Assembly (NCBI GenBank): GCA_963794235.1
Contig: CAWCCP010000011.1
Coordinates: 25,490 to 89,489 of the forward strand
Origin: an uncultured bacterium
Lineage (GTDB): Bacteria > Patescibacteriota > Saccharimonadia > Saccharimonadales > UBA4665
Direction of reading: 5' to 3'
DNA length: 64,000 nt
The notes under the pieces are model-generated. The model saw only the letters and a program-made list of their open reading frames with translations. It searched no databases and was not told the origin of the DNA. How positions within the stretch are numbered: position 1 is the stretch's first letter; each line of letters starts with the position of its first letter. Made by a program: the position numbers and the translations under genes. Of the stretch, positions 5,250-19,862 are shown one piece after another.

Positions 5250-5340
5250 AAAGCGTATCCTAATTGCAACTTCTTCTTAACAATGTAGACTTGAAGCCTT
5301 ACTTACTAAATATAAGCGAATTTAAGGGTTCAGGCTGTAG
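5115..5340. repeat. left arm of perfect 226-bp inverted repeat
   Basis: The reverse complement of 5115-5340 is identical base for base to 6414-6639 (checked in 10-nt blocks). The outer end is TGGCTC, the reverse complement of GAGCCA. Confidence 0.95.
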
Positions 5341-5933: not shown

Positions 5934-6400
5934 ACCAAGCAGCTTTTGAGTTTAGCAGCTATTTCATCAATCACTTCATCATTAACAATTCTTTCGGCTT
6001 TATCGTCATAGAACTCGCCATAAAGCGGGTCTTCATACGTCGTATCGCCAATGACGGTAGCTTGTTTATATCGAGGAATGATATGCCAGTGAACGTGTGG
6101 ATTACCTGGCAAAGCTCTGAAAGCATTATTCATATTGCAACCCCAATTAAGTGGTTCTGCTCCAAAAGCAACTTTATATGCTTTCTCAAGTTTCCTAACG
6201 ATTTCTTTGAATTCCTGCCACTCTGATTGATTAAGCTCACTAAGACTTGATTTGTGGGTGCGTAATGTAGCATAGGCTCTACCTAAGTATGCTTGGTTGT
6301 TACCAAGACCAATATTCCAGCTATTCGTTACTAGAATCTGGTGTTTGGGGTCAGCGAGGAACTTGCAAGCGTCGCAGTCTTTATCCATACTGATTATCAT
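5930..6400 (-). CDS. HIT-family (histidine triad) hydrolase
   Basis: HVHWHIIPR matches the H-x-H-x-H-x-x HIT motif. The likely start is MIISMDKD at 6400. The longer track ORF extends into the IR arm. Confidence 0.75.
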   Translation of the reverse strand: MIISMDKDCDACKFLADPKHQILVTNSWNIGLGNNQAYLGRAYATLRTHKSSLSELNQSEWQEFKEIVRKLEKAYKVAFGAEPLNWGCNMNNAFRALPGNPHVHWHIIPRYKQATVIGDTTYEDPLYGEFYDDKAERIVNDEVIDEIAAKLKSCLV

Positions 6401-6413
6401 AACATCAGAGAGC

Positions 6414-6639
6414 CTACAGCCTGAACCCTTAAATTCGCTTATATTTAGTAAGTAAGGCTTCAAGTCTACATTGTTAAGAAGAAGTTGCAATTAGGATACG
6501 CTTTTTAAGCAACCCCAAGCTCACCATTAAACAGCCCTAACGGACTCTGTAAGTAACTCCGAGCTATTTCAATCTCTCTAGATAGCTCAACAACGTATCG
6601 GTAGTACTTAGTCCGCAACATTGCTGGTACGTCGAGCCA
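6414..6639. repeat. right arm of perfect 226-bp inverted repeat
   Basis: Identical to the reverse complement of 5115-5340. The outer end is GAGCCA (6634-6639). Confidence 0.95.
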
Positions 6640-6677
6640 GACCAAGCACCAACAGAGGTAGACCGGGTTCCAAGACC
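6634..6677 (+). repeat. cassette-boundary repeat, GAGCCA core plus GACCAAGCACCAA...GACCGGGTTCCAAGACC
   Basis: About 85% identical to 8256-8298 over ~44 nt, in the same orientation. Confidence 0.8.
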
Positions 6678-6842
6678 GGTCTTCCTTTATTTTTGACAGT
6701 AACTTCTTAATTTTCCACCTCTGTTAGAGGTTCGAATCCAGTTCCTGTTATTACCACAATGGGTTGGAACTGCTAAATATGCGAGTTTACAAGATTTACC
6801 TCTGTAAGTTGGTTCCAGAAGCGACCAGTCACCACTATGGCA

Positions 6843-6878
6843 ACCAAGCAGCATGAAAGCCGACCAGGTTCCATGACC
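6843..6878 (+). repeat. partial third copy of the ACCAAGCA...GACC.GGTTCCATGACC unit
   Basis: ACCAAGCAGCATGAAAGCCGACCAGGTTCCATGACC aligns with the right halves of the 6634 and 8256 copies but lacks the GAGCCA core. Confidence 0.5.
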
Positions 6879-6961
6879 AATTCCAGCCCCACTTGACTCC
6901 TCAGTAGGCCAAAATGTAACGTTAGCAATACTCAGACTTCAAACTGTAATGCGTACCAATA

Positions 6962-6984
6962 TAAAAAGCCCCTCTAAAGGAGCT
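6962..6984 (-). terminator. rho-independent terminator candidate
   Basis: On the minus strand, AGCTCC-TTTAGA-GGGGCT hairpin followed by TTTTT. It overlaps the stop of the small ORF 6974-7135. Confidence 0.5.
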
Positions 6985-7135
6985 CTCTGGTCTGCAAGTC
7001 ATTAGGCTGACGCTTTACGTGCTTGAGACGCTTGCGGCGACGGTTGGCTTCGGTGATAGCAGCCTGCTGGCCGTACTTCACCTTGCGTCTCGCTGCCTGT
7101 ATTGGACCGCAATGGCGGTGTTGATTATGCGCCAT
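6974..7135 (-). CDS. small Arg/Lys-rich protein (53 aa), hypothetical
   Basis: Own translation: MAHNQHRHCGPIQAARRKVKYGQQAAITEANRRRKRLKHVKRQPNDLQTRELL*. It is below the track length cutoff, locally GC-rich, and followed by a terminator hairpin. Confidence 0.35.
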   Translation of the reverse strand: MAHNQHRHCGPIQAARRKVKYGQQAAITEANRRRKRLKHVKRQPNDLQTRELL

Positions 7136-7305
7136 CAGGTCAACCTGCGTTGATTTCCACTACCTAGAATTAGCTCGGTCAGGCTAATACATAATGGGTA
7201 AGTTAAAGTGCCCTTAAATTATATCATGAATTTGTCATGGGGAGACCCGCATCCGCAATTCTTATTATGGCGCTAAGCAGCTTCTATAACGGTTAGATGT
7301 CTCAA

Positions 7306-7572
7306 TTATGCGCTCGTGCGCACCGAACCATGTTTATCAAATACTAAGACCTTAGAATTTCGTTTAGCGGCTCGGGTTCGGGCTGCGCTTATAGCTTCCG
7401 ACTCCGTAGGAAATAAAGTGCCAGGACTAGTACGAACACTCGCTTTTCGTACGTACCAACCTTTACCATTTTGAACCACAAAGTAACTATTGCGTCCTTT
7501 TTCGACAGCATTAACGTACTCTTGAATTTGCTTATTGGATTTAGCTGGTGGTTTCAGTGTCTTAAAAGTCAT
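7306..7572 (-). CDS. DUF2188-like small protein
   Basis: 88 aa. The GKGWYVRK...FPTESEAISAARTRA...VLVFDKHG pattern resembles the DUF2188 family. Confidence 0.55.
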   Translation of the reverse strand: MTFKTLKPPAKSNKQIQEYVNAVEKGRNSYFVVQNGKGWYVRKASVRTSPGTLFPTESEAISAARTRAAKRNSKVLVFDKHGSVRTSA

Positions 7573-7649
7573 ATAGTCCTTGCGCTCGTTTTATCTCATC
7601 TTCATTATACTGGTTTTTCTTTATGAATTCAACGAGATCATTCCTATTC

Positions 7650-8177
7650 TTATCTGTTAAAACTTGAAACTCCATTTTTTTGGCCCTGTCTTTTATGGTC
7701 GTAGTTACTCACGATAATAGTTATAGGAATATCGGGATATGCTTGAGAGATCTTCAAAAGAGTGGCTCGAGAATCACTATGCGTTCGATAGAAATGCTTT
7801 GGTGAAAATTGTCTATCCCGACTAAAGAAAGCTTCAAAGGCAGTTACAAAATCGGCTGGCCAGACTGCATGCACCTCTACATTCTTTTTAAATTGTAAGG
7901 CTTTTTCTATCTTGGTGGTTGCTCGTCTAAGACTTGAAGATGTTCCATCATAGACAATGACAGGCGCACGCTCTAAATATGCTGATACATATTCAGACTT
8001 ACCTGAAGCACTACCGCCAGACATGACAATGACCGTTTTCTCAGACCTGGTCTTTAGTGCATCTTCAAAAGCCTTATCAGCAAGCCGGGTGGATGCTTCA
8101 TGGAACTCTTCAGCTCTACTCGGATCATAACCCGGCAAGCTCTCTTTCATATCGTCGGCAGAAATAATGAAGGCCAT
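7650..8177 (-). CDS. P-loop kinase, zeta-toxin/AAA_33-like
   Basis: 175 aa with Walker A MSGGSASGKSE and the size and layout of small zeta-type nucleotide kinases. Confidence 0.5.
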   Translation of the reverse strand: MAFIISADDMKESLPGYDPSRAEEFHEASTRLADKAFEDALKTRSEKTVIVMSGGSASGKSEYVSAYLERAPVIVYDGTSSSLRRATTKIEKALQFKKNVEVHAVWPADFVTAFEAFFSRDRQFSPKHFYRTHSDSRATLLKISQAYPDIPITIIVSNYDHKRQGQKNGVSSFNR

Positions 8178-8255
8178 ATAGAAATTGTAACCTAATACAC
8201 CCTAGTCTAACAGCGTGATCGATCCATGGGCCATGTTTAACTCATGAGCGATGGT

Positions 8256-8298
8256 GAGCCAGACCAAGCACCAAATTAGGTGACCGGGTTCCATGACC
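8256..8298 (+). repeat. cassette-boundary repeat, GAGCCA core plus GACCAAGCACCAA...GACCGGGTTCCATGACC
   Basis: Direct repeat of 6634-6677. Confidence 0.8.
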
Positions 8299-8319
8299 AG
8301 CCCTCGATTGATGACTCAT

Positions 8320-10002
8320 CTACACGATCGCACCATGACACTTCTTATACTTCTTACCACTTCCACACGGACAAGGTTCATTACGCCCAATCTTCTCCCC
8401 GGTTTGCAGAGAAAAAGCTGTTAATTTATCATTAGTGGGTTCCCGCGTGCTAAAATCTAGTCCAAGCGACAATACGAAATTTTCATAAGCAAAAAGCTCG
8501 TGATATTTGTTCTCTTGTCTGAGTAAATCTTCGGTAGGCTTCTGACCGGCTTTCCGCCGCTCTTTTGCTTCACTCAGTCGTCTTGACTCAAGTGAACGAT
8601 CAATTTGTTCCGCCTCTTTCTGCGTCTGTTTATAACCATGTTTATCGCCGAGGTTCTCGTAAGCTGCTAGCAGGTAATCCTCTAGGCACTGCAGCGGCCA
8701 TTCATCTGGCTCAAGTTCGCCAGCAAGCACCCTGTCCCAGACTGTATGACTTACCCCGATTGTCTTGTGGTCTTCGCCAGTCTCCAGCAAGCCGCGGGCA
8801 ATTCCCATAGCCATCATTTGACTGTGCTCTGGATAACGCTTGAGTAACTGCTCTAATTGATACTGCCAATTCGTATCTGCAGCAATTCGCCTAATCACAT
8901 CAGCTACCGCAAAGTCTGGGAAAAAGCCGCTGGCCAGACCGGCTTCAGCAATAGTGAGCATGTGTTCCGCAACACCCGATTGCCGAAGCACCTCATACGC
9001 TAACAAATCATGAATAGTAGCCCGCAAATTTGCAACCTCATGAGGATATTTCTGATATGTTTCAAAGACCGCTTTGTCAGCTTGCTCAAAAGCCCAGGCT
9101 AAGCGCTCTATGGTAGAGAAATAGAGGCTGCTGTCGGGCTCAACATCTTCCAGATCTAAAACGATTGACATAAAAGTCTCTATGAGCGGCCGGGTAATCA
9201 AGCGATCCCACAGCACCTCGCAGGCGGCATAGAGATAATCATCATCAACTTCTTTAATGCCAGATGCTCGTGCTTTAACTTTGTCAACGACAGCTTCGAT
9301 AGTATCTTTAACCGGACGGCCGATGGTTTTGAACTCTATCTCACCAAGCTTAATACCCATTTTGGCCAACTTTTTTAGAATATGCTCGGTCGATGTGGTC
9401 TCTAGATCTTTAGACGATACAAAATCAAAACGCGGGTTGTCTGCAAGCTTGCGCAGGCTATATTGCAAAAAGTCACCCCGTAGAGCCTGTTCTTGTAGCT
9501 TTTGTCCGAAACTATATTGCGGATTTAAACGCAGCGCGATGTTTAGCGCTGCTTCGCCCAGTAGCAAATTACCATTAAGATATGCCGTTGATGCAACATT
9601 ACCAAACAAACGATAGGGTTCGGCGAGGATCATGCGTTCATCCAGAGCCATCTGCAACGTCTGCAGCCAGAGTGTCTCGCTTTCTTCCGCGTTACCGCGG
9701 CGTAGCGCAGCATCGGCTGCCATCGACATTTCAACGATGAATGTCGGATCTATGGTATGTAACATAGCTCCGCTCAAGGCCGATCTATCTGTTGCGACTG
9801 GCTTAGCGGCTTGAAGGATATTGTCAATCTCTGACGGTTTAATATTGAGACTGGCTGCCATGCTAATCAAAACCGATAACCAAAGAGGTGCCTTGTCGGC
9901 ACTGGCCGTATCCATTTGACGCCACCGCTCCAAATCCTCAGCCGTCAATATGCTTTCAAGCTGTGTACCACGAATTGCGTCGTTGATTGCTTTAGTATTC
10001 AT
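8320..10002 (-). CDS. SEC-C motif domain protein
   Basis: C-terminal [14 protein letters not shown] matches the SEC-C zinc-binding motif, and the body is helical-repeat-like. The preferred start is MNTK at 10002, preceded by GGAGGA. The track ORF extends further upstream, overlapping the next gene. Confidence 0.6.
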
Positions 10003-10018
10003 TAACGAATCCTCCATA

Positions 10019-10660
10019 TTATTCCAGATATAGCTTAAAGGATTTCTTGCCATCAATAACTTGTAGCACCGATCCATCGCCAAAAGGGCTGCCGTCAGGC
10101 ATGGTAGAGAACGTATCGATGCACCACACTCCATGTTTAACTTCATAACAGGTATCGGAAGGGGTGTGCCCGAATACTTGAGGTATATTTTTGTATGTAA
10201 TACTGCCGCCAGGTCGTGCCCAAAGAGGGCTTGTATCATTCCACAGGCCACTCACGTCTTCTGCACCAGACCACTCGTTAGCTATGCCAGCGTGAGAATA
10301 AGTAACGCCATCAATTTCGATAATAACAGGCAAGCTAGTAAGCCATTCTTTCAGGTTTTTATTTTCTGGGGCGTCAATTAAAACGTGTGTAATCGGGTTG
10401 TAGCCAGATTGCAATGAAGGTGTATCATTGACATATATGTAGTCGTGATTACCTGTAACGAGCTCAACTTTGCCTTGGTTTTTAGTCTGCAGATCTTTTA
10501 GAGTGTTCCAGGTGTTCAGGGTATCTTGCGGACTAGCGCTAAAGTCGTCTGCATAATCACCACAGAAAATAACTCTATCGTAGTCGCCGATGACTTTAGC
10601 GACTTTCTCAATAATCCAGATCTTCGTGTGAACGTCACCAATTGCTAGTACTTTTGCCAT
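10019..10660 (-). CDS. metallophosphoesterase (calcineurin-like, PP-lambda/ApaH type)
   Basis: Motifs GDVH, CGDYADD and GNHD occur in canonical order. 213 aa. Confidence 0.75.
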
Positions 10661-10675
10661 GCCAACAGTATATAG

Positions 10676-11026
10676 CTAGTCGTGCTGACTGTGCAGTTTT
10701 CGTATGCGCTGCCGTACTGACTCTTGATACTGCGCAGGGTTCTGCATCTGGTGATAGGCACGAACAGCAATCACCTCAAAATGATTGTCATCCACAAGAT
10801 ACACAATCGCTACTTTATGATTTTCCATCTGAACTTTGCGCACATCCGGATCGTCTTTGAATACGGCATTGGTTCGTGGCAAGTTTTCCAAGTTCGCTAC
10901 GGTTTCCATAGCTTCATCAAAAAACTTCACCGCTGATTCAGCATCCACCAGCTCTTCGTAAAATGCCATTAGCTCGGCAATATCGTTCTCGGCATCTTCT
11001 GTAAGATTGACGCTATACTTTTGCAC
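10676..11026 (-). CDS. type II toxin, ParE/RelE family
   Basis: 116 aa with a GTG start and ParE-like sequence (DAENDIAEL...FEVIAVRAYHQ). It overlaps a small upstream ORF. Confidence 0.65.
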   Translation of the reverse strand: MQKYSVNLTEDAENDIAELMAFYEELVDAESAVKFFDEAMETVANLENLPRTNAVFKDDPDVRKVQMENHKVAIVYLVDDNHFEVIAVRAYHQMQNPAQYQESVRQRIRKLHSQHD

Positions 11027-11180
11027 CAGTAAGTTCCTGATATTTCTTTAGAATATCTTTCTTGGCCTGGCTGAGCGGTATACGGTTTTTAGGATTTTTA
11101 GCAAGTTTAATGCGTCGTTCCAACTCAATTAAGAATTCTGGGCTGTTTTCATCTACATTAATAACTCTGCTATTTTTCAT
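11013..11180 (-). CDS. putative cognate antitoxin (55 aa)
   Basis: Own translation: MKNSRVINVDENSPEFLIELERRIKLAKNPKNRIPLSQAKKDILKKYQELTGAKV*. It overlaps the toxin start by 14 nt. Confidence 0.45.
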   Translation of the reverse strand: MKNSRVINVDENSPEFLIELERRIKLAKNPKNRIPLSQAKKDILKKYQELTGAKV

Positions 11181-11287
11181 ACTTTTATTTTACCACATAT
11201 CATGCATAAAATATACGCAAAAATTTGACAAATAACAGGTGTAAGCTAAGGTAAAGCGAGCCCAATATTTAGGCGGTAATTGAGTTT

Positions 11288-11318
11288 GGTGCGAATCCAG
11301 TTTGGGGAGCCATAAGCA
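11288..11318 (+). repeat. cassette-boundary repeat (GGTGCGAATCCAGTT...GAGCCATAAGCA)
   Basis: The core GAGCCATAAGCA at 11307-11318 is shared with 14873, 15637 and 16649. The left part GGTGCGAATCCAGTT matches 6729-6743 at 14 of 15 positions. Confidence 0.7.
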
Positions 11319-11338
11319 CTATACAAATATCACTTTTT

Positions 11339-11725
11339 GTGGTATTATTTAGTTTTATGCCTGATTTTGAAATTGTTGGAGTGCCAGACCATAGCTATGC
11401 TCATTGGTTTCTAGACGCTAGTGCTAAGCGCGGCATGACTGAAGTACGAGTAGTTACTGCCTGGGGTCCAAAACTTGCTCAAATTGACAACTACAGACTA
11501 GCCCAGGAAACTACTCCAGACGATGTTGAATATATTTTTGGGGGCACTCTAGGTAGATTCGCAGTAACTGGAATGGCACATAGTTTGGATCAGAGCGGCA
11601 GTTTGCATATTGAGGTTGATGAAACGGATGAGCCTGAACTACTCCTACTTCTCAAGAAAGATGCTCCTTTGACGCCTGATGAATGGTTTTTTGGATGGGA
11701 TGCTCAGCAGCCACATCAGGACTAA
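11339..11725 (+). CDS. hypothetical protein
   Basis: 128-aa ORF (GTG; alternative ATG at 11357). No recognisable motif. Confidence 0.4.
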   Translation: MVLFSFMPDFEIVGVPDHSYAHWFLDASAKRGMTEVRVVTAWGPKLAQIDNYRLAQETTPDDVEYIFGGTLGRFAVTGMAHSLDQSGSLHIEVDETDEPELLLLLKKDAPLTPDEWFFGWDAQQPHQD

Positions 11726-11760
11726 TTTTAAGGCTGCGAAGTACTTCCACTACGTAAGAC

Positions 11761-12024
11761 ATGAGTAGTGATATAATTAAGAACATGCAAAGTCTTAGTG
11801 ATGACGAACGAAAACAAGTGCTAGGGGAAGTTTTAGCTGATGAGCTAAAAGCAATTCATGAGCTAGTTAAAGATGTGCCTTCTATTAAGCAAGATGTTCA
11901 AGTTCTCAAAGAGGATGTAAGTGAGCTTAAATCAGATGTGAAAATCATAAAGGCTGCTGTCACTGATTTAAGCAAACAAGTAAACGATCATGAACAACGC
12001 ATAACTCACCTTGAAGCAGCATAA
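11761..12024 (+). CDS. hypothetical coiled-coil protein
   Basis: 87 aa, heptad-rich (VQVLKEDVSELKSDVKIIKAAV). Confidence 0.5.
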   Translation: MSSDIIKNMQSLSDDERKQVLGEVLADELKAIHELVKDVPSIKQDVQVLKEDVSELKSDVKIIKAAVTDLSKQVNDHEQRITHLEAA

Positions 12025-12091
12025 CCGCCTAAATATACTGTAACCCAATTAAATCCTGCTTTATTACGGTTATAACTTCCTCTATTGTGGG

Positions 12092-12103
12092 GAGCCAAGA
12101 TTA
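12092..12103 (+). repeat. cassette-boundary core variant GAGCCAAGATTA
   Basis: GGGGAGCCA, as at 11304-11312 and 15994-16002. It is followed by the terminator hairpin. Confidence 0.5.
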
Positions 12104-12114
12104 GAGCTGATATT

Positions 12115-12140
12115 AACAGAGGTAATTGCCTCTGTTTTTC
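12115..12140 (+). terminator. rho-independent terminator
   Basis: AACAGAGG-TAATTG-CCTCTGTT followed by TTTTC. Confidence 0.6.
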
Positions 12141-12192
12141 ATTTTGGGATACCAGGGTGGCACTTGTTAGAACTTTTGCTATGATTAGTCAC

Positions 12193-12312
12193 ATGAAACG
12201 GGTTGCTATTATCGGCTCACCTGGCACCGGCAAATCAACATTTGCGAAACGGCTTGCACAACAAGTTGGATTACCACTCATACATCTCGATTACTTGTAT
12301 ATTACCCAGTAG
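12193..12312 (+). pseudogene. N-terminal fragment of topology-modulation/adenylate-kinase-like P-loop protein (FlaR-like)
   Basis: [36 protein letters not shown] then a premature stop. The rest of the protein resumes at 14406. Confidence 0.7.
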
Positions 12313-13658: not shown

Positions 13659-14130
13659 TTAGGAACTAGGAGTTGGCGATGGCTGACTAGACATAGCAAT
13701 TTGTGCCAGTGTGAGAATCTCGATCCCTGAAGCGGTAACTTCTGCGCCATTTTTAGTACGCTCCATCTGTATCTGTTGCCCACCAGGATTAGAGTCATCT
13801 GTATTGTACGTGTAGCCAATTTCGTAATACTTCTTGTCCATCGGCTGCTTTCGGGGCTTTTCCTGAACCCAGAAGCTCGATGCTAGACGGCGAATTGTAG
13901 GTGTTTGAGGAGCCCCTACAGTCAACATCTACCGTTCCCATGTCTCCTTCTGGAGATACGCCATTGATTAAATCTATATCTAGGCGCGTACCTGTTGGAC
14001 ATGTAACGCCGACATTCCATTCTCCGCTAACATTGTGTCCAACAACACTGCTACAGCCCGCAGCGCCAAGCGCCATCGCTGTCAAAGAAGCTACGGCTAC
14101 TGGCCCTCTCCATCCTTCAAGTTTATTCAT
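13659..14130 (-). CDS. putative lipoprotein, split into two overlapping frames (13795-14130 and 13659-13928)
   Basis: The N-terminus has a lipobox-like LGAAGCSS. The two track ORFs overlap in different frames around G/T runs at ~13850-13870. GC-rich like the IS. Confidence 0.4.
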
Positions 14131-14230
14131 CTCGCTACCTCAGTTATTTATGGACATTACATTAACATGTTGCCAGTCCTAGGTCAAGTTTGACTCTGGA
14201 CGACGTGCCAGTGACAGTAAATTCTAATAA

Positions 14231-14261
14231 CTATTTGACATTGATATATGAGGCTATGACC
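14231..14261 (+). repeat. 31-nt direct repeat, copy 1
   Basis: CTATTTGACATTGATATATGAGGCTATGACC versus 14386-14416 CTACTTGACATAGATATATGAGGCTACTACC, matching at 27 of 31 positions. Confidence 0.7.
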
Positions 14262-14385
14262 TTAACATCACACTGATCAAAGGCTTCACCACCTCTGTCT
14301 CTTTTAAACATACTAATACTATAGCATATTAGAGTTATTCTATCAACAATCCCGTATTTTCGACCCCATTTGGCGTGTGCTTGTC

Positions 14386-14416
14386 TACTTGACATAGATA
14401 TATGAGGCTACTACCA
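14386..14416 (+). repeat. 31-nt direct repeat, copy 2, at the resumption point of the split kinase gene
   Basis: See 14231-14261. It also contains ACTTG...TATAT...TACC, echoing the left junction GATTACTTGTATATTACCC at 12290-12308. Confidence 0.7.
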
Positions 14417-14816
14417 TGATAAGCAACAGGACTATTACACAAACAAAGAAGGCTGGCGTACTAAAGCGGATGGCTTCACAAATGCCGATAGCTGGATTAT
14501 AGACGGTAATTTTGGTGCAACTATGGCAAAACGTTTTGAACAGGCAGACACTACCTTCTATTTCAATATGCCAACATGCATTGCTCTTAAGGGTGTGGTG
14601 AGGCGTTGGCTGACAGCCAATCATTCTGACCGACCAGAAATGCCCGATGACTGGCAAGAGAAACCAAGCTTCTCATTCTTTTGGAGAGTACTTTGGTTCC
14701 GCCACCACTACGCTTCTGGCACACAACAATTACTTGCAGATAATAAAGATAAGACAATCATTATCTTTAGAAGTCGTAAACAAATTGCTACATATCTGAG
14801 TACGGGTACTAATTAA
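14406..14816 (+). pseudogene. C-terminal fragment of FlaR-like P-loop kinase
   Basis: The frame is open from 14406: ...YYHDKQQDYYTNKEGWRTKADGFTNADSWIIDGNFGATMAKRFEQADTTFYFNMP... This matches the core and lid region expected after the 12193-12312 fragment. Confidence 0.7.
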
Positions 14817-14872
14817 CGCGCTCATACAGTCATTATCTCGCAAATCGCAGTTCTAACATCCATCACTACAAC

Positions 14873-14884
14873 GAGCCATAAGCA
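14873..14884 (+). repeat. cassette-boundary core GAGCCATAAGCA
   Basis: Exact 12-mer shared with 11307, 15637 and 16649. Confidence 0.65.
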
Positions 14885-14923
14885 GTACTTGACTTACTAA
14901 CCAAAGTGTATACAATAGTTAGT

Positions 14924-15205
14924 ATGAGTACAGTACTAAATGTAAAGATTGATCCCGATCTAAAGAAGAGGGCTCAGAGCGTCGCAAAAGAGCTTGGCTT
15001 GCCTATGAGCATTGTTATAGCCGCCGGGCTACGGGAATTCGTCAATACCCGCAGTATCACCATTTCTGATTCGCCAAGACTAACTCCAGAAATTGAAACC
15101 GAACTTCTGGAGTTATCGAAGAAAGCGAGAGCGGGTAAGCTCGACGACTTCTCTCCAGCCTTCAAGAGTATAGAAGAAAGCTTTACTTGGCTTGATTCAA
15201 AATGA
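14924..15205 (+). CDS. RelB/DinJ-family antitoxin
   Basis: MSTVLNVKIDPDLKKRAQSVAKELGLPMSIVIAAGLREF is a typical ribbon-helix-helix DinJ N-terminus. It overlaps the downstream toxin by 4 nt. Confidence 0.75.
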   Translation: MSTVLNVKIDPDLKKRAQSVAKELGLPMSIVIAAGLREFVNTRSITISDSPRLTPEIETELLELSKKARAGKLDDFSPAFKSIEESFTWLDSK

Positions 15206-15462
15206 TCATCAGATACAGCAAAAAATTTAAGAAACAATACGAAAAGCTTTCTCCCAAATTACAGCAAAAAACGAAGAATGTTATCAGCCTATGGTCAACC
15301 AACCCCGCTGATGAATCGCTAAGATTACATCAGCTTAGTGGTAAGTTAAAGCGATTTTATAGCATAGACATTACTGGTGACGTTAGAGCACTATATGAGG
15401 TCATTGACGATGAAGTATACCTTTATCAGATGATCGGTACTCATTCTCAGCTTTACGGTTAG
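15202..15462 (+). CDS. YafQ/RelE-family mRNA interferase toxin
   Basis: 86 aa. The LHQLSGKLKRFYSIDITGDVRALY...IGTHSQLY pattern is characteristic of YafQ/RelE toxins. Confidence 0.8.
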   Translation: MIIRYSKKFKKQYEKLSPKLQQKTKNVISLWSTNPADESLRLHQLSGKLKRFYSIDITGDVRALYEVIDDEVYLYQMIGTHSQLYG

Positions 15463-15513
15463 CGACGTAAGGCATTAATTCTGCTAGCGCACTTCTCGTT
15501 AGTTAGCCTAGCG

Positions 15514-15648
15514 TTATTTCGAGCCACACTTGTCTTCGTCGCTAGATTCAAACAGCTGGCGGATTTGTTGAGCTTCCACCTCCTTATTCTTAACGCTATC
15601 CAACTCTTCGAAAGTTTGGAATAAAAACCATTTGCCGAGCCATAAGCA
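15514..15648 (+). repeat. gene 3'-end remnant (minus strand: ...WLGKWFLFQTFEELDSVKNKEVEAQQIRQLFESSDEDKCGSK*) plus core GAGCCATAAGCA
   Basis: One of three copies, the others at 18205-18315 and 19051-19167. A 31-nt block AAAGTTTGGAATAAAAACCATTTGCCGAGCCA is identical in all three. Confidence 0.85.
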
Positions 15649-15677
15649 TTTTGGCCTCTGTTAATCAGAGGTCTTTT
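15649..15677 (+). terminator. hairpin plus T-run
   Basis: GGCCTCTG-TTAAT-CAGAGGTC followed by TTTTT, immediately after the core. Confidence 0.5.
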
Positions 15678-15727
15678 TGATTCAATGACACAAATATGAA
15701 ATGACGTAAACATGTTAAAATAGATCT

Positions 15728-15973
15728 ATGAGTCAAGATGAATTTACCAAGCTATTCAATTACATGGAAAAACGATTTGATAGCATTGACCAAGCACTTG
15801 AAAATAAAGCAGACAAACAAGATGTTCAAAAACTGATTGACGCTATCGATGCGTTTGCGAAACGACAAGAAATTGACGATGAGGAAAGGCTCGTTATGGC
15901 TCACCAGCTCGAAAGGCTCGATAAGTGGGTGCATGAGCTTGCAGATAAAATCGGCGTTTCGCTTTCCGTGTAG
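15728..15973 (+). CDS. hypothetical coiled-coil protein
   Basis: 81-aa ORF filling one cassette. Confidence 0.5.
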   Translation: MSQDEFTKLFNYMEKRFDSIDQALENKADKQDVQKLIDAIDAFAKRQEIDDEERLVMAHQLERLDKWVHELADKIGVSLSV

Positions 15974-16002
15974 TTGCGGAGCTCGTCCACTAGGGGGAGC
16001 CA
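15973..16002 (+). repeat. cassette-boundary repeat GTTGCGGAGCTCGTCCACTAGGGGG + GAGCCA
   Basis: Its 25-nt left flank matches 19823-19847 with 2 mismatches. Confidence 0.75.
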
Positions 16003-16075
16003 GACTTGTTATGGTACAAACTTGAGTAAAGATCCAGTAGGCATTAATACTGCTGGATTTTGTTATGATAGCTAT

Positions 16076-16627
16076 ATGCGAAAAGTATTTCTGTTTATGA
16101 TGACCACTCTTGATGGCTACTTTGAAGGCAAAAACCATGATATCTCGTGGCACAACGTTGATGCCGAGTTTAACACATTTGCCAATGCTCAGCTCGATGA
16201 AGCAGATACACTTATTTTCGGCCATAGAACCTATGAGCTTATGGCGAATTTCTGGCCAACAACTCAAGGCATAGAAGCAGCGCCCGAGACCACTAGCCGG
16301 ATGAATTCACTGCCAAAGATTGTATTTTCTCATCAACCATTTACCCCAGTCTGGAAATCAACAGTGGCGTATACGGATATACGGAAGCTAGCTGATATTA
16401 AACAGCAGCCAGGTAAAGCTATAGCCGTTTTAGGCAGCTCTAATTTATGTGTCTCTTTGCTAGAAGCAGGTTTACTAGAAGAAGTTCGAATCATGGTTAA
16501 CCCGGTAGTCATAGGCAAGGGAACTCCTTTGTTGGCTGGCATTAATACTTCGCATAAGTTCAGCTTCATCGATTCTCGCACCTTTACGAATGGCAATACC
16601 TTACTACGATACAACGTCAACGACTGA
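16076..16627 (+). CDS. dihydrofolate reductase-like (RibD C-terminal domain) family protein
   Basis: MRKVFLFMMTTLDGYFEG...LIFGHRTYELMANFW...VLGSSNL...NPVVIGKG is typical of RibD_C. The start is taken at the internal Met. Confidence 0.7.
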   Translation: MRKVFLFMMTTLDGYFEGKNHDISWHNVDAEFNTFANAQLDEADTLIFGHRTYELMANFWPTTQGIEAAPETTSRMNSLPKIVFSHQPFTPVWKSTVAYTDIRKLADIKQQPGKAIAVLGSSNLCVSLLEAGLLEEVRIMVNPVVIGKGTPLLAGINTSHKFSFIDSRTFTNGNTLLRYNVND

Positions 16628-16648
16628 TTTGTTCAAGACCGTTAGGCT

Positions 16649-16660
16649 GAGCCATAAGCA
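16649..16660 (+). repeat. cassette-boundary core GAGCCATAAGCA
   Basis: GAGCCATAAGCATTTT is a 16-mer identical to 15637-15652. Confidence 0.7.
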
Positions 16661-16714
16661 TTTTAACCTCAGTAAGTAGAGGCCATTTTTATAGGTTTTG
16701 TTATCATTAAGTGA

Positions 16715-17440
16715 ATGAAGAAAATCCTCAACATAGCACATCGCGGAGCTTCTGCGTATGAGCTCGAAAATACGTTCGCAGCTTTCATCAAAGCCATAGA
16801 AATGGGCGCAGATATGATAGAGATGGATTTGCATCTAACAAAAGATGGCGAAATAGTAATCATGCATGATTTTCAGTTACGCCATACCACTGATGGCGCA
16901 GGTCGGATCGAAGACTTAACATATGAAGAAGTACGGCAATTTCACGAGCGAAATAACGAGCAAATACCTATGCTCAAAGAAGTTATCCGTAAAACTTATG
17001 GAGAAATTGGATTATATTGCGAGCTCAAAACTTTCGGCATAGAAGATGTATTTATCAAAACTATTCGTGATTTAAAATATGAGCAATATGTAATTGCTGG
17101 AGGCTTCCTACACCCTGTAGTGAAAGCTGTAAAAGAAAAAGCTCCTCATATTAAAACATCTATTATGGTTGCCGACGTACCTATAAATCCTATAGAAATG
17201 GCTAAAGAAGCCCAGGCTGATTACATTCATCTGTGTTGGGAAGGTCGAGCGGCTCATCCATATGAACTGGTAACGACTGAATACGTTAGCAAAATTCAAG
17301 AAGCAGGATTTGGTGTTATTATCTGGCACGAAGAACATCTAGTACCAATGCGTCATCTCTTTGCAATAGGAATAGATGGTATATGCTCTAACAAGCCTGA
17401 TGTTATAGCTCGTGAGTTAGCGAGGGAGCCTTTCCATTAA
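16715..17440 (+). CDS. glycerophosphodiester phosphodiesterase
   Basis: HRGASAYELENTFAAF...GADMIEMDLHLTKDGEIVIMHD is the GDPD signature. Confidence 0.85.
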   Translation: MKKILNIAHRGASAYELENTFAAFIKAIEMGADMIEMDLHLTKDGEIVIMHDFQLRHTTDGAGRIEDLTYEEVRQFHERNNEQIPMLKEVIRKTYGEIGLYCELKTFGIEDVFIKTIRDLKYEQYVIAGGFLHPVVKAVKEKAPHIKTSIMVADVPINPIEMAKEAQADYIHLCWEGRAAHPYELVTTEYVSKIQEAGFGVIIWHEEHLVPMRHLFAIGIDGICSNKPDVIARELAREPFH

Positions 17441-17526
17441 AATCTGCTTCAAAGTTGTGAAGTATACCCACCGGAGGAAGCCCTAAAAGGTTGACTTTTA
17501 TAATATAAAGTAATAACATTGAAGAT

Positions 17527-17799
17527 ATGAAAACCATAACAGCAAAAGACTTTCAACTTCACCATTCTTCTATCGTTAAAGACGTTGCAAATGGACATGA
17601 ATATGAAGTCACGTTTCACCGCAAGCCTCTTATTAAATTGGTTCCCGTTACGAAGATGCCCACAAAAAACCTTGAACCGGGCAGTCGCGATGCGTTGATT
17701 AAAGCTTTGCAATATACGGCTTCTTCGAAAGGCGATCTTTATGATCTGCCATACAAGCAATTAAGAAGCCGCATGCTAAAGCAAAGATATGGCAGCTAA
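17527..17799 (+). CDS. Phd/YefM-like antitoxin
   Basis: 90 aa. The N-terminus MKTITAKDFQLHHSSIVKDV...EVTFHRKPLIKLVP is typical, and it overlaps the downstream PIN gene. Confidence 0.6.
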   Translation: MKTITAKDFQLHHSSIVKDVANGHEYEVTFHRKPLIKLVPVTKMPTKNLEPGSRDALIKALQYTASSKGDLYDLPYKQLRSRMLKQRYGS

Positions 17800-18187
17800 G
17801 CTAGTTTTTGTAGACACAAACATATTGATGGAGCTCTTCTTTCGTCGCTCCAAATATGATTTGGCCATGACAGGATTAACGGCAATATCCGAAGTAGATA
17901 TAGTTTGCACATCAATATTATCTCTCGCTACGCTACTCTACTATGTAGAAGCCGAAAAATTTGACAAAAAAACAGCTCATAATTTTGTGAAGGGCTTTAA
18001 GGTTTTGGATATGAATGAAGCCGACTATAAGTGGGCGGAAGCTAACGACCAAGGAGATTTTGAAGATGCGCTACAAGTAGCCTGTGCTCGACGCCATGAT
18101 TGCTCATATTTATTCACTTTAGATAAAAAGCTCGGCACAATGTATGGAAAATATTTATCGGTTCACACAATTACAAAAAAGAGCTAA
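17789..18187 (+). CDS. vapC: PIN-domain toxin (VapC family)
   Basis: LVFVDTNILMELF N-terminal acidic motif, later conserved D/E residues, 132 aa. Confidence 0.75.
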   Translation: MAAKLVFVDTNILMELFFRRSKYDLAMTGLTAISEVDIVCTSILSLATLLYYVEAEKFDKKTAHNFVKGFKVLDMNEADYKWAEANDQGDFEDALQVACARRHDCSYLFTLDKKLGTMYGKYLSVHTITKKS

Positions 18188-18204
18188 CAAACATACTTTA
18201 CTAG

Positions 18205-18315
18205 CTAGGATGAATTATCTTCAAACAGTTGATAAATTTGCCGGAAATCAGACTCATTATCCTTAACACTATCCAGCTCTTCAAAAGTTTGGAATAAAAA
18301 CCATTTGCCGAGCCA
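18205..18315 (+). repeat. gene 3'-end remnant copy 2 (minus: ...WLGKWFLFQTFEELDSVKDNESDFRQIYQLFEDNSS*) plus GAGCCA core
   Basis: See 15514-15648. Here the core is followed by AGCCAGAC instead of TAAGCA. Confidence 0.85.
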
Positions 18316-18379
18316 AGCCAGACTAGAAAAACACACCTCTTTAACGAGGTATGTTTTGTTTGATCGGCAGGGCTACCGT

Positions 18380-18688
18380 TTACTTTATACTTAATCCTCT
18401 CTTGCCCTCGGCAAAATCGTGGAGTACCGCTCCAAGTAAAGTCTGATAGGGTATATTATTCTGCTTAGCCTTTGCTTTAATTTTTATAAGGTCTAGTTGA
18501 TTAATGCGCAGCGTAACAGGCTTAGATGCATGAAGCTGCTTATAGTTGTGTGCCGCTTCTTGCAACATCTTCGTGGTATCGCCAAGATCTGAAGACACCT
18601 CAAAATCACCTCTCTCAATAGCGTCCTCTATAGCCCGTTCTTCATCATCCAGCACTAGATCACTGAACGGATCTTTGGTGTTACTCAT
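18380..18688 (-). CDS. brnA: BrnA-type (CopG/RHH) antitoxin
   Basis: 102 aa with C-terminal RINQLDLIKIKAKAKQNNIPYQTLLGAVLH, typical of BrnA. It overlaps brnT by 8 nt. Confidence 0.7.
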   Translation of the reverse strand: MSNTKDPFSDLVLDDEERAIEDAIERGDFEVSSDLGDTTKMLQEAAHNYKQLHASKPVTLRINQLDLIKIKAKAKQNNIPYQTLLGAVLHDFAEGKRGLSIK

Positions 18689-18974
18689 CTCGTCGCTCCT
18701 TTCTTATATATAACTTTGTAAGCGCCCTGCTAGGATAAATCGTTTTTAAAAAGATCTCACTCAACTCTGTATTCATAACATAGGGGACGGCATAGGCATA
18801 TTCGTTGATACGGATGACATATATTCGCTGATGAGCGCGTTTTACGCTCGGATGAGCCAAGTCGGCCAGAACGTCATTCTTCTCTATTGCGTCTATGATT
18901 TCTTCAAAGCTAATATTCCGCGTGACTTTTAGCAGTTGGTTCTTCTCCTCGTTAAACCTAATGCTAAAATCCAT
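18681..18974 (-). CDS. brnT: BrnT-type ribonuclease toxin (DUF497)
   Basis: 97 aa. F..EKNQLL...RNISFEEI...RIYVIRINEYAYAVPYV matches the BrnT/DUF497 pattern. Confidence 0.7.
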   Translation of the reverse strand: MDFSIRFNEEKNQLLKVTRNISFEEIIDAIEKNDVLADLAHPSVKRAHQRIYVIRINEYAYAVPYVMNTELSEIFLKTIYPSRALTKLYIRKERRDE

Positions 18975-19050
18975 ATGTCTATATTACTTAAATGTACATC
19001 AATTGTCAATACATAACCATGCTGGCAACTTGGTAGATACATAGACGACC

Positions 19051-19167
19051 TTACAACTTGTCGAGGGTCTCATCGACAAGCAAGCGTATCTGCCGAATTT
19101 CCAAATCCTTGTCTTTAACACTATCCAGTTCTTGGAAAGTTTGGAATAAAAACCATTTGCCGAGCCA
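19051..19167 (+). repeat. gene 3'-end remnant copy 3 (minus: ...WLGKWFLFQTFQELDSVKDKDLEIRQIRLLVDETLDKL*) plus GAGCCA core
   Basis: See 15514-15648. Here the core is followed by AGCCCAAG. Confidence 0.85.
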
Positions 19168-19287
19168 AGCCCAAGCTAAGATTTACAGATGTAATGTTTT
19201 ATGTTATTGCTTGTTTTACAAGAAATTCTTTATGCTCATTGAGGTATACTAACTGCATGAATCTCAACGATAAAACAGCCGTAGTCG

Positions 19288-19599
19288 TTGGCGGAAGTCA
19301 AGGAATTGGCCGAAGCAGAGCGCATAGAGAAGCTAGCAGCTGGACAGGCTGAAATTCTTCAGACAATGGAGACTTTGGCGAGCGGTGGTTACACCTGGGT
19401 AGGTATCATGGAAGTCAGGCTAAATAGCCCTATGGATTCTGTAGAAAAAATTAAGGGTTTCTACTCTGAGAAGTATGGGGTAGATCCCGAGGATATACAT
19501 ATTGTGGAAGATGCAGCGATATATGGAGGCACAACGCCTACTACAGCTCCAGGCAATGTGACCGTATATATTCGTAGAAATATGGATTCCGACTCTTAA
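19288..19599 (+). CDS. hypothetical protein
   Basis: 103-aa ORF (TTG; alternative internal ATG). No motif recognised. Confidence 0.4.
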   Translation: MAEVKELAEAERIEKLAAGQAEILQTMETLASGGYTWVGIMEVRLNSPMDSVEKIKGFYSEKYGVDPEDIHIVEDAAIYGGTTPTTAPGNVTVYIRRNMDSDS

Positions 19600-19822
19600 G
19601 AGGATGGGCAATACTCTATTTTTTTCTGATAAACAGGGTATGCTAGAGGTGATATGTCAGATGCAAGATCAACTAAGTTAAATATTCGCGAAGACCAGCC
19701 AACTGCAATAAGCAGCAGCATACACGGAGCAAACATTAACGTTACGTCATTCAATCGGCTGGAGCCCCTGAACGCATAGAGCTACGCTCGAGAGAAGCAT
19801 AATTTTCATCCAGAGTAGCATG

Positions 19823-19855
19823 GTTGCGAAGCTCGGCCACTAGGGGGCATAAGCA
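19823..19855 (+). repeat. last cassette-boundary repeat GTTGCGAAGCTCGGCCACTAGGGGG + degenerate core (GCATAAGCA)
   Basis: The left flank matches 15973-15997. The right flank TAAGCATT matches the 15643 and 16655 type. Confidence 0.7.
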
Positions 19856-19862
19856 TTACGAA

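Follow-up and report, generated by a model that had tools for sequence, protein, structure and literature searches.

The GAGCCA repeat that punctuates a gene array in the window (the whole stretch of 64,000 nucleotides analysed here, part of the chromosome of a Candidatus Saccharimonadia (TM7) bacterium) is the final six bases of the tRNA-Asn gene, the insertion site of a Saccharibacteria large serine recombinase (LSR). The array has the appearance of eleven or more small gene modules stacked by successive insertion at the tRNA-Asn end, that is, of a serine-recombinase counterpart of an integron, with a content that is wholly different among close relatives. We consider it probable that it constitutes the distal portion of an island on the 3' end of tRNA-Asn(GUU), built via serial site-specific recombination by the adjacent LSR or relatives of it.

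The initial annotation had placed ten GAGCCA cores and a degenerate eleventh on one strand, and all of them are present in the sequence, the eleventh (at 19845) being mutated to GGGCAT. A twelfth core, at 5115, is inverted (TGGCTC) and has to be added to them. Over its 13.3 kb, the array contains 14 copies of GAGCCA on the plus strand and 5 on the minus strand, compared to 3.2±1.8 copies expected from 500 dinucleotide shuffles, the maximum of which is 9.

The flanks of the cores pair in a mosaic fashion, as had been claimed. A left flank of 96 nt is found in three copies (at 15637, 18310 and 19162; 78–80% identical, with the final 36 nt identical), each followed by another right flank, and the left flank GTTGCG.AGCTCG.CCACTAGGGGG is found in two (15997 and 19845) with unlike right flanks. 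The right flank TAAGCA, in turn, stands behind four different left flanks, or five with 19845 included, and GACCAAGCACCAA...GGTTCCA.GACC behind two. At most boundaries only the 6 nt are shared, and the heterogeneity of the right flanks counts against serial insertion. The array sites all have one orientation, and no attC-like internal symmetry is seen in their arms, in line with the earlier reading. Terminator-type hairpins, said to follow most cores, are found 3' of six of the eleven (Table 1; the one at 16667–16682 is weak), the last of them (19860–19883) closing the array before the chromosomal MarR/MFS genes.

Table 1. Features of the array and of the LSR-proximal element. P arm, putative attP-type half-site; R1, arm model described in the text; F1, F2 and WLGKWFLFQ denote arm families.
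Feature	Coordinates	Strand	Remarks
LSR gene	1..1284	-	Pfam Resolvase + Recombinase; first 428 codons, 3' end past the left edge of the window
HTH_36-like protein	3795..4640	+	Weak Pfam match; conserved LSR companion in these elements
Orphan LSR-gene end, last ~45 codons ('head', P' side of attP)	4980..5114	+	tblastn, residues 452-498 of LSRs
Inverted core TGGCTC and P arm 'tail A' (WLDVPAMLRT...)	5115..5340	+	Arm 1 of perfect 226-nt inverted repeat
Cargo between inverted arms: 185-aa membrane protein, HIT-family protein	5330..6412	-	
Arm 2 of inverted repeat: P arm 'tail A', core GAGCCA (6634-6639)	6414..6639	-	Heptamer TGCGGAC at offset 23
Cassette 1: leader, DUF2188, zeta-like kinase, arm, core 8256	6640..8261	+	DUF2188 7306-7572 (-), kinase 7650-8177 (-); conserved 250-nt leader, terminator hairpin 6654-6688
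Cassette 2: SEC-C protein, metallophosphoesterase, ParE with small upstream ORF, arm, core 11307	8262..11312	+	Arm is a decayed tRNA 3' half with B-type spacing, TTCGCAC at offset 18
Cassette 3a: 128-aa protein, then F1-type P arm without core	11313..11760	+	Arm 11735-11760, read on - strand; R1 E=0.048
Cassette 3b: 87-aa coiled-coil protein, F2-type P arm, core 12092	11761..12097	+	R1 E=6e-5
Cassette 4: P-loop kinase split by IS110-family element, P arm, core 14873	12098..14878	+	Leader hairpin 12115-12136; IS110 transposase 12646-13599; TTAGAAC at offset 23 in P arm
Cassette 5: RelB/DinJ-YafQ pair, WLGKWFLFQ-family P arm, core 15637	14879..15642	+	
Cassette 6: 81-aa protein, F1 P arm, core 15997	15643..16002	+	R1 E=4e-7; leader hairpin 15653-15673
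Cassette 7: RibD_C (DHFR-like) protein, B-type-spaced arm, core 16649	16003..16654	+	CTTGAAC at offset 18
Cassette 8: GDPD, Phd-VapC(PIN), WLGKWFLFQ-family P arm, core 18310	16655..18315	+	
Cassette 9: convergent small-gene pair, WLGKWFLFQ-family P arm, core 19162	18316..19167	+	Leader hairpin 18335-18350
Cassette 10: 103-aa protein, F1 P arm, mutated core GGGCAT at 19845	19168..19850	+	R1 E=0.0024

The gene sets listed in the initial annotation agree with Pfam, and two of them have to be corrected. The one assigned to a FlaR-like kinase does carry a kinase, which is interrupted by the IS110 transposase. The two small hypotheticals are both there, separated by the core-less arm into two cassettes. 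For the presumed BrnTA pair, two convergent small genes are present; one encodes a 102-aa CopG-type antitoxin, and its 97-aa partner has no Pfam match. The Pfam scan covered 46 ORFs of the window, namely 16 that lie within or next to the array and every ORF of at least 150 aa at 24.6–63.5 kb (30 in number), and none of them matches a tyrosine recombinase, which agrees with the reported lack of an IntI-type enzyme. Nor was any LSR gene debris or pseudogene fragment found inside the 13-kb array. The cores at 19845 and about 11760 have decayed, and part of the array is therefore fossil, which counts against serial insertion.

We now turn to the recombinase. The gene noted earlier at 1–1284 is present, on the minus strand (1284 to 1) and cut by the edge of the window; its full product was recovered as a 100% identical full-length protein (P0076, 515 aa, ending ...NSKNKNT-WLTVVNALRTPNYGLSAIS). 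Its own junction with the tRNA falls beyond the window, a point that counts against serial insertion. The HTH_36-like protein, which is possibly a replication or regulatory protein, has homologues immediately upstream of the LSR in L003, L015, L029–L034, L039 and L058. Next to it lies the orphan LSR head, an ORF without start codon and in opposite orientation to the resident LSR, whose nucleotide identity with the 3' ends of the L003 and L058 LSR genes is 94–97% for this head. The cargo found in the same slot in these two loci is unrelated to that of the window, while a homologue of the HIT protein forms a single-gene cassette in L036. The second inverted arm forms the distal junction of the element that carries the LSR.

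The linkage to the tRNA is seen in about 30 related loci, where the LSR gene adjoins an intact tRNA gene and runs antisense into it. The LSR ORF contains the core, and its stop codon lies within the antisense tRNA, which is Asn, Arg or Gly in three tRNA-specific clades. In the clade of the window it is tRNA-Asn, with the 3' end GAGCCA, and in L023 (91% amino acid identity to the window's LSR), P0078, P0081 and P0083 the C-terminus WLRGLDSNQRP is antisense tRNA-Asn. The identity of the core with the tRNA-Asn 3' end had gone unnoticed in the initial annotation, which had named the nearby LSR as the candidate enzyme; in all relatives the LSR gene indeed lies on the core. The proposal of repeated site-specific recombination at a short core, by insertion or tandem accretion, is likewise upheld by LSR elements that end at cores, singly and in tandem. 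The L014 and L040 elements, which have 94% identity, both end exactly at cores, one adjoining tRNA-Asn and the other lying behind a second, 9-kb element that adjoins the tRNA.

The cassettes are reshuffled and turn over rapidly. Cassette 6 (360-bp) recurs in L055 with 75% nucleotide identity, the homology ending at the core and both neighbours being different, and homologues of the Phd-PIN pair of cassette 8 are found in L003 downstream of the LSR, in another cassette. Four LSRs that are 87–96% identical to the window's run into a tRNA, into two F1-type arms and into an F2 arm, and their junctions and arrays are entirely different. In L058, the LSR ORF is fused to an F2 arm that is 91% identical to boundary 12092 of the window, and the HTH36/97-aa segment is 99–100% identical, but no array cassettes are in common. 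Arrays of small LSR-less modules also exist in L015/L043, L017, L036, L041 and L055. The cassette order is identical in the contigs of the same strain that two other samples yielded (L001, L002, L021, L022), and no circular cassettes, empty sites or alternative junctions were seen; both results count against serial insertion.

As judged from the sequence, most left flanks are attP-type half-sites, and they double as coding sequence for alternative C-terminal tails of the recombinase; neither role had been recognised in the initial annotation. The tRNA-side half-site has the consensus TGGCTC-CGGcGgC-TGG-A-TTCGAAC (n=17) and the distal arms TGGCTC-cCacTag-TGG-ACGTAC-TTCGCAAC (n=20), the T-loop-like heptamer being displaced away from the core by 5 nt in the latter relative to the former, the attB half-site. 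Such an outward shift of 5 nt is the established geometry of LSR attP versus attB half-sites (PMC3783163). In the window, the heptamer (at least 5 of 7 matches) is at offset 22–24 in four of eight independent arm families, against a background of 3.6%, and in the 15997/19845 family the attP-type position is taken by an 8-mer variant. In two more families (11307 and 16649) the heptamer stands at offset 17–19, as in attB, and these arms resemble decayed ends of the tRNA, not attP arms, and the 8256 arm has neither heptamer nor recognisable half-site; both observations count against serial insertion. An arm model (R1) built from the relatives' arms alone, with the window left out, matches three window boundaries (15997, 12092 and 19845; Table 1), and across 34 loci all its matches lie upstream of the LSR and on the same strand as it. 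The coding role is suggested by the three WLGKWFLFQ arms, which differ chiefly at third codon positions of the W-L frame, and by five F1 tails with a constant length of 29 aa and the ending LN(T/S)LQ(R/G)*. We infer that the heptamer is the motif for the zinc-ribbon domain.

In the mechanism that we propose, the crossover would fall inside the six bases G71 A72 G73 C74 C75 A76 of the tRNA, the body of which would supply the attB-type half-site. Every mobile module would bear a half-site of attP type, called the P arm and forming the left flank when read on the plus strand, which resembles the acceptor/T-arm of the tRNA with the T-loop-like heptamer 5 bp more distal, and on the opposite side of the core a short leader, often with a terminator hairpin. 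A new insertion beside the tRNA would displace the older modules outward. Each internal boundary would then consist of the P arm of one module, the core and the leader of the next, and the flanks would therefore be mosaic and freely assorting. The LSR ORF crosses its own att core and takes its last 13–44 residues from the antisense tRNA or from a neighbouring module's P arm, and the arms show coding-type conservation because the end of the ORF is encoded across the core. It counts against this mechanism that canonical LSRs recombine only attP with attB, hybrid sites requiring a directionality factor; repeated insertion beside an occupied tRNA would therefore need the demands on the right-hand half-site to be relaxed.

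It is also conceivable, though rather unlikely, that the cassettes were never mobile and that the array is the fossil record of successive 5–9 kb LSR elements at tRNA-Asn that lost the recombinase and most of the cargo. The tandem full-size elements of L040, the decayed cores or arms at 19845, 11735–11760 and 11307, and the lack of excision products in the same-strain contigs are all compatible with such a history. However, the modules are regularly built (leader, one to three intact genes, arm), the 13 kb are free of LSR remnants, and cassette 6 has been kept whole in another genome. Furthermore, the small LSR-less modules of L003 are tRNA-proximal to an intact LSR and therefore arrived after it, and arms of ~30–50 nt are common to otherwise unrelated modules in distant genomes.

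We attach very little probability to the LSR being a bystander and the array being due to another enzyme (a tyrosine integrase, Xer on dif-like sites or an integron integrase located elsewhere) or to homologous recombination between the arms. The length of the three 96-nt arms and of the 226-nt inverted arms would suffice for homologous exchange, but the 6 nt common to most boundaries are too short. Tyrosine-integrase islands at tRNA genes are commoner in bacteria (PMC4383910), yet the ORFs scanned contain no such enzyme, the core lies inside the LSR ORF in more than 30 loci, and the arm geometry fits LSR half-sites, with a single orientation and no attC-like symmetry. Finally, chance recurrence of GAGCCA, or its occurrence in the usual terminators of a syntenic core region, is refuted and retains next to no credence: terminator-like hairpins do follow about half of the cores, but the copy number exceeds anything in the shuffles, the strand bias is strong, the independent model from other genomes matches three boundaries, and synteny is absent even with L058, despite its near-identical neighbouring genes.

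For serial insertion by the LSR, the closest known systems are the ssrA islands of Dehalococcoides (DsiB), in which the LSR gene is beside attL on the strand opposite to the small-RNA gene, and which are tandem, bounded by direct repeats of the t(m)RNA gene 3' end, and in about half of the cases without integration module, mobilisation in cis or trans being presumed for these members (PMC3146451). The same paper likewise compares them with SCC. The array shares with them the LSR beside att and antisense to the RNA gene, the t(m)RNA 3' end as target, the tandem units, the RNA-end repeats and the recombinase-less members. It differs in its target (tRNA-Asn), in a repeat of 6 nt instead of 20 nt, in modules of 0.33–3 kb with one to three genes where theirs overlap SCC and typical phage genomes in size range, in an LSR ORF that crosses the core, and in its host, a ~1-Mb CPR bacterium; a second small serine recombinase, as in Dehalococcoides, is not seen with the array. 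SCCmec, composite SCC and pseudo-SCC (CcrAB/CcrC) similarly form tandems of serine-recombinase elements at the 3' end of a single gene, rlmH, with short direct repeats between them and recombinase-less members. Their target, in contrast, is protein-coding, the elements are tens of kb long, and the recombinase genes are internal, without overlap with the att site.

Prochlorococcus tycheposons occupy hypervariable tRNA islands in streamlined genomes, where new integrations push older ones outward and leave partial tRNAs and degenerate elements, a minority using large serine recombinases (10.1101/2020.12.28.424599). The tRNA-adjacent growth by successive integration is similar, but tycheposons mostly use tyrosine recombinases, carry replication modules and leave true partial tRNAs as repeats, whereas the array repeats are mostly attP-type arms and its modules are cassette-sized. 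With chromosomal integrons (IntI, attI, attC) the analogy is functional: a single recombinase adjoins a single primary site, small cassettes of unrelated content (often toxin-antitoxin) form a long array of uniform orientation, and families of cassette-borne sites are common to unrelated cassettes. The array does not belong to the integron family; its enzyme is a serine recombinase instead of a tyrosine one, its sites are not folded attC hairpins, its primary site is a tRNA 3' end, and its genes are found on either strand and have signals of their own. SSV-type integrases (Sulfolobus SSV1) are tyrosine recombinases with the att site in the integrase ORF. In both cases the site is within the recombinase coding sequence and the gene is therefore rewritten by integration, but the SSV gene is halved, while the LSR remains intact with only its last 13–44 codons swapped.

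Serine-recombinase-built tandem islands at tRNA/tmRNA genes, which the initial annotation had not considered, have already been described, and the system is therefore not unprecedented. We infer that the LSR-less cassettes, many of them toxin-antitoxin pairs, move as circles with the LSR acting in trans, and that the swap of the recombinase tail would have functional consequences. The array is best read as a miniature version of the tandem islands known from tRNA/tmRNA genes and similar targets, among them the ssrA islands of Dehalococcoides and the SCC composites.

The ten GAGCCA cores that the initial annotation placed on the plus strand are all present there, and the sites can be named by their core positions (see the table). 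For the eleventh site the position, 19845, is borne out, while the core itself is mutated to GGGCAT. In the 13.3-kb array the motif occurs 14 times on the plus strand and five times on the minus strand; dinucleotide-preserving shuffles give 3.2±1.8 copies against these 14, with a maximum of 9 in 500, and the recurrence of the motif is thus beyond chance. The mosaic pairing of the flanks was recovered as described: one left flank of 96 nt is found three times, each time with a different right flank, another of 25 nt is present twice with two different right flanks, and the TAAGCA right flank is preceded by four or five different left flanks. The gene sets assigned to the cassettes are supported by Pfam. 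It is important to point out that the two small hypothetical genes listed as one cassette do exist, and that they are split into two modules by a core-less arm, which is a decayed boundary absent from the earlier list. Hairpins, said to follow most cores, are present in terminator-like form after 6 of the 11.

Coordinates and sequences of the features discussed (window positions unless another locus is named)
Feature	Position	Strand	Remark
Large serine recombinase (LSR)	1284-1	-	cut by the window edge
Segment carrying the LOOT RNA	1358-3417		different 4.5-kb cargo in its place in L058
LOOT RNA (Rfam RF03000)	3226-3350	-	72 bits, gathering score 46.4
Start-less ORF	4953-5246	+	...KLEQKRYLLNFIVATTTFDGEKLVFNLKEPFKALLNSKNKNT-WL-...
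Perfect 226-nt inverted repeat	5115-5340 / 6414-6639		outer ends: inverted core and core 6634
Same arrangement in L003	964-1156 / 2376-2568		
Same arrangement in L058	1999-2191 / 3526-3718		
GAGCCA cores	6634, 8256, 11307, 12092, 14873, 15637, 15997, 16649, 18310, 19162	+	
Non-coding leader, 250 nt	6640-6890		after core 6634
Counterpart of the leader in L017	5640-5891		beside the distal core of a distant LSR element
Core-less F1-type arm	11735-11760	-	TAGTGGAAGTACTTCGCAGC; between 128-aa and 87-aa genes
IS110-family element	within 12313-14520		
IS110 transposase	12646-13599		DEDD_Tnp_IS110 + Transposase_20
Direct repeats, 31 nt	14231 and 14385		in the region of the IS110-family element
Cassette of the 81-aa protein (h81), 360 bp	15643-16002		
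Mutated core	19845	+	GGGCAT
DDE transposase (DDE_Tnp_1_3)	31667-32497	-	
Group I intron (Rfam RF00028) in L024	1683-1968	-	87 bits
Accessory block in L056	about 2150-17360		~15 kb, between rplK and rplJ
tRNA-side half-site (attB type), n=17			LSR strand: TGGCTC CGGcGgC TGG A TTCGAAC
Distal arm of LSR elements (attP type), n=20			LSR strand: TGGCTC cCacTag TGG ACGTAC TTCGCAAC

The IS110 transposase splits the P-loop kinase gene of cassette 4, and two direct repeats lie in the region of its element. At its terminus, the array ends with the mutated core 19845, which is followed by a terminator and then by chromosomal MarR and MFS genes. The rest of the window holds ordinary chromosomal genes, such as those for enolase and a P-type ATPase; a DDE transposase in this chromosomal part is unrelated to the array. 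A megablast search with positions 5000-20000 against plasmids gave no match.

The recombinase at the left edge carries the Resolvase and Recombinase domains of a serine recombinase (Pfam, 5e-12 and 2e-11), and Zn_ribbon_recom is also detected in the LSR of the relative L017. In the LSRs of the window's clade, Pfam gives no zinc ribbon, though Cys motifs are present, and a PDB sequence search with a full-length LSR had no match at E≤1e-3. All loci with relatives of the LSR belong to genomes and metagenomes of Candidatus Saccharimonadia/Saccharibacteria. There, the end of the LSR ORF falls within an intact tRNA gene encoded on the other strand, and integration at a tRNA 3' end with an adjoining recombinase gene is seen in about 30 relatives. 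The target is tRNA-Arg in one LSR clade, tRNA-Gly in another and tRNA-Asn(GUU) in a third, and tails (the C-terminal ends of the LSRs) such as WLRGLDSNQRPSG are antisense T-arms. The window's own LSR-tRNA junction falls off the left edge; its clade is placed on tRNA-Asn by L023, with a 91% amino-acid-identical LSR, by L024, and by the relatives' LSRs P0078, P0081 and P0083. Since the tRNA-Asn gene ends in ...GGAGCCA, the motif GAGCCA makes up the final six bases of this tRNA and is also the att core; with this core at the tRNA end and the LSR ORF ending inside the tRNA, the ORF of the recombinase extends across its own att site. The full window protein, P0076, reads into a P arm (an attP-type half-site), so that one or more further modules separate it from the tRNA. 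In L024, the tRNA-Asn gene entered by the LSR (78% identical) contains a group I intron, because of which this tRNA is not called by ARAGORN.

Read on the minus strand, every core becomes TGG CTC (Trp-Leu), after which 16-44 sense codons run to a stop; upstream start codons are missing. The three WLGKWFLFQTFEELDSVK... copies differ mostly at third codon positions in the Trp-Leu frame, and these thus are, or recently were, coding C-terminal ends and not N-terminal fragments. Another option considered was that the left-flank frames are N-terminal gene fragments or orphan toxin modules in the style of polymorphic toxins. This is excluded by their lack of start codons and their ending after so few codons, and also by their match to the C-terminal tails of the relatives' LSRs. 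The first part of a start-less ORF on the plus strand is the C-terminal region of the LSR itself. Pfam searches with the tails and with the 98-aa headless ORF gave no matches, and no LSR gene fragments were found inside the window's array.

The half-sites are of two types, attB on the tRNA side and attP in the distal arms. Their proximal part is the same, and in the distal arms a T-loop-like heptamer is set 5 nt farther from the core. For serine integrases, the zinc-ribbon-domain motif is shifted by 5 bp between attB and attP half-sites (PMC3783163), and the displacement found here, in the consensus sequences as well as in the window's arms, follows that geometry. We infer that the heptamer is the contact of the zinc-ribbon domain. 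It is present at the attP-type offset in arms 6634/5115, 12092, 14873 and 15637/18310/19162 (background 3.6%), and the 15997/19845 family has an 8-mer variant of it (TCCGCAAC / TTCGCAAC) at the attP-type position. In arms 11307 and 16649 it is found at the attB-type offset, and these arms look like decayed tRNA 3' halves; arm 8256 is unclassifiable. Some of the proposed boundaries can also be recognized from outside the window, using sequence-only models (A1 and R1) built from the relatives' arms alone with the window left out. The relatives-only model matches sites 15997 (E=4e-7), 12092 (6e-5) and 19845 (2e-3), and it also detects the core-less arm. When applied to 34 loci, its matches are confined to the LSR strand upstream of the LSR. 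The view that the array lies downstream of "its" recombinase is rejected, since in relatives the arrays sit upstream, on the LSR strand.

We now consider the evidence that the cores are points of recombination. L014 and L040 carry LSR elements with 94% identity, which stops within 1-2 nt of the cores at both ends, and over the comparisons L014 vs L040, L039 vs L041 and L015 vs L039 the breakpoints fall within 1-3 nt of the core. The L014 element abuts tRNA-Asn, while its L040 counterpart lies against the P arm of another element, 9 kb long, which is itself next to the tRNA. Such a layout is tandem accretion with the newest element beside the tRNA. On a smaller scale, the 360-bp cassette made up of the h81 gene and an F1 arm has a 75% identical counterpart in L055, a locus with at least seven arms, all on one strand. 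The similarity spans gene and arm and ends at the core; in L055 the cassette is flanked by an ADH cassette and by one for a 293-aa protein, in the window by DinJ-YafQ and RibD_C. The h81 homologues in L052 and L056 have surroundings without cores or arms, which means that the gene is not confined to these arrays. The L056 block of accessory genes (Saccharimonadales GCA_035758565.1), located in the secE-nusG-rplK...rplJ-rplL cluster, includes thymidylate metabolism, two RibD_C, peptidase S51, the h81 homologue, Fic and PNP. It contains no GAGCCA-type arms and is possibly a different kind of insertion hotspot.

The LSR endings also differ among close relatives. P0076 ends in WLTVVNALRT... and the LSR of L003 (96%) in WLPQVDVLRTF..., while that of L058 (P0077, 95%) ends in another arm and that of L023 in tRNA. 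The arm fused to the L058 LSR is 91% identical to the window's internal boundary 12092, and the 12092-type arm has apparently moved. Cassette content differs as well: L058 shares the HTH36 and 97-aa proteins at 99-100% identity and none of the array cassettes. With element ends at cores, a moved cassette and differing junctions, the initial annotation's reading of the mosaic as the product of repeated site-specific recombination is essentially right. Similar arrays of small recombinase-less modules are found in L015/L043, L017, L036 and L041, and their cargo includes NUDIX, ITPase-like, reverse transcriptase, restriction-modification and HIT genes. Look-ups of exact proteins gave no match for the 97-aa BrnT-like protein, the zeta-like kinase and P0076, and for others yielded nothing but short contigs of the same strain in which the order is identical. 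In two other samples, same-strain contigs have one fixed cassette order, and the evidence thus speaks for turnover in the course of evolution and not for rearrangement that is still going on.

A perfect inverted repeat has core 6634 at one outer end and an inverted core at the other; in front of the latter lies an orphan copy of the last ~45 codons of the LSR. The same arrangement is present in L003 and L058. Within a genome the arms are nearly identical (100% in L058, 99% in L003), while those of the window share about 93% identity with the arms of L058 and 75-83% with the arms of L003. The sequences enclosed by the arms are unrelated in the three genomes (HIT and a membrane protein; a 415-aa protein; a 451-aa KAP-like NTPase). 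This points to concerted evolution of the arms and to a cargo that is replaced or inverted at a pair of inverted att sites, and it suggests an invertible or exchangeable slot. The leader after core 6634 is about 71% conserved in L017. It starts with a strong terminator hairpin, has a fold z-score of -2.4 and holds several units (CCTCTGT...GGTTCCA/GGTTCGAATCC type) that resemble T-arms; a permissive Rfam scan of 6600-6950 gave nothing credible. The LSR-bearing element also contains, between the genes for a 217-aa protein and HTH36, a LOOT RNA that is absent from the seven related loci scanned.

In the mechanism proposed here, a module would consist of a leader, often with a terminator, followed by genes and a P arm, with the core joining neighbours. 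Insertion beside the tRNA would bring one module's arm together with the leader of its neighbour as a boundary, and the flanks would for this reason assort independently. The small modules may travel by themselves as circles, with the LSR acting in trans. The window's LSR-bearing element would then reach from beyond the left edge to core 6634, and the ten or eleven modules to the right of this core would be older arrivals. Canonical LSRs act on attP x attB only, and repeated insertion at an occupied tRNA would therefore require a loosely specified right half-site.

Other types of mobile arrays were weighed against this mechanism. The same-orientation layout resembles that of an integron, whose attC sites have paired inverse-core and core (R''/L''...L'/R') symmetry and whose cassettes are mostly promoterless, in one orientation and expressed from Pc. 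As previously noted, there is no IntI-type recombinase, with no Phage_integrase-type match among the window's Pfam-scanned ORFs, and no attC-like symmetry, the arms having no internal inverted repeat and the cassettes no inverse core; a GTTAGGC near 16640 is an isolated copy. The array genes moreover lie on both strands, with terminators at 6 of the 11 boundaries and no common expression orientation, and an integron is thus rejected. Modules of the pdif/Xer type are flanked by 28-bp XerC-spacer-XerD sites in alternating orientation; the boundaries here have one orientation and share 6 nt only, and on these two features this option is also discarded. IS200/IS605-like ends or MITEs do not fit either, as neither terminal inverted repeats nor target duplications accompany the modules.

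Among described systems, the series of ssrA islands in Dehalococcoides comes closest. There, the LSR (DsiB) adjoins attL on the opposite strand, the islands lie in tandem between repeats of the tmRNA 3' end, and about half of them are without an integration module (PMC3146451). SCC composites and tycheposon-shaped tRNA islands follow the same logic. The window array differs from the known islands in its cassette-sized modules, 6-nt core and CPR host, in having attP-type arms instead of tRNA copies, and in a recombinase ORF that spans the core. It is thus a miniature variant of the already known tRNA-anchored islands built by serine recombinases. In the literature searched, no description of such arrays in Saccharibacteria/Patescibacteria was found.

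A bolder reading, which we put forward only tentatively, is that of a serine-recombinase counterpart of the integron, in which a resident LSR with a permanent dock at the tRNA-Asn 3' end captures, excises and reshuffles recombinase-less mini-cassettes whose only site is an attP-type half-site. One specific half-site per partner would then suffice for the LSR, making it intrinsically reversible. If so, each capture would give the recombinase a new C-terminal tail and might thereby tune its activity, and the inverted-arm slot at 5115-6639 would provide another way of docking, by which cargo could be exchanged or inverted.

The tRNA-anchored array offers a case of an enzyme whose C-terminus is rewritten by its own reaction, and, for a single LSR family, dozens of naturally occurring half-sites of the attP and attB types that can be read directly from genomes. 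An LSR family with a compact tRNA target could also interest genome engineers. If the small cassettes are mobile in trans, the building of cassette arrays would be a trait of LSRs as well as of tyrosine integron integrases. In Saccharibacteria, whose genomes measure about 1 Mb, few routes of gene gain are recognized. A tRNA-anchored slot that gathers and exchanges single-gene modules, namely toxin-antitoxin pairs, kinases, HIT, NUDIX and restriction-modification systems, would explain their flexible gene pool.
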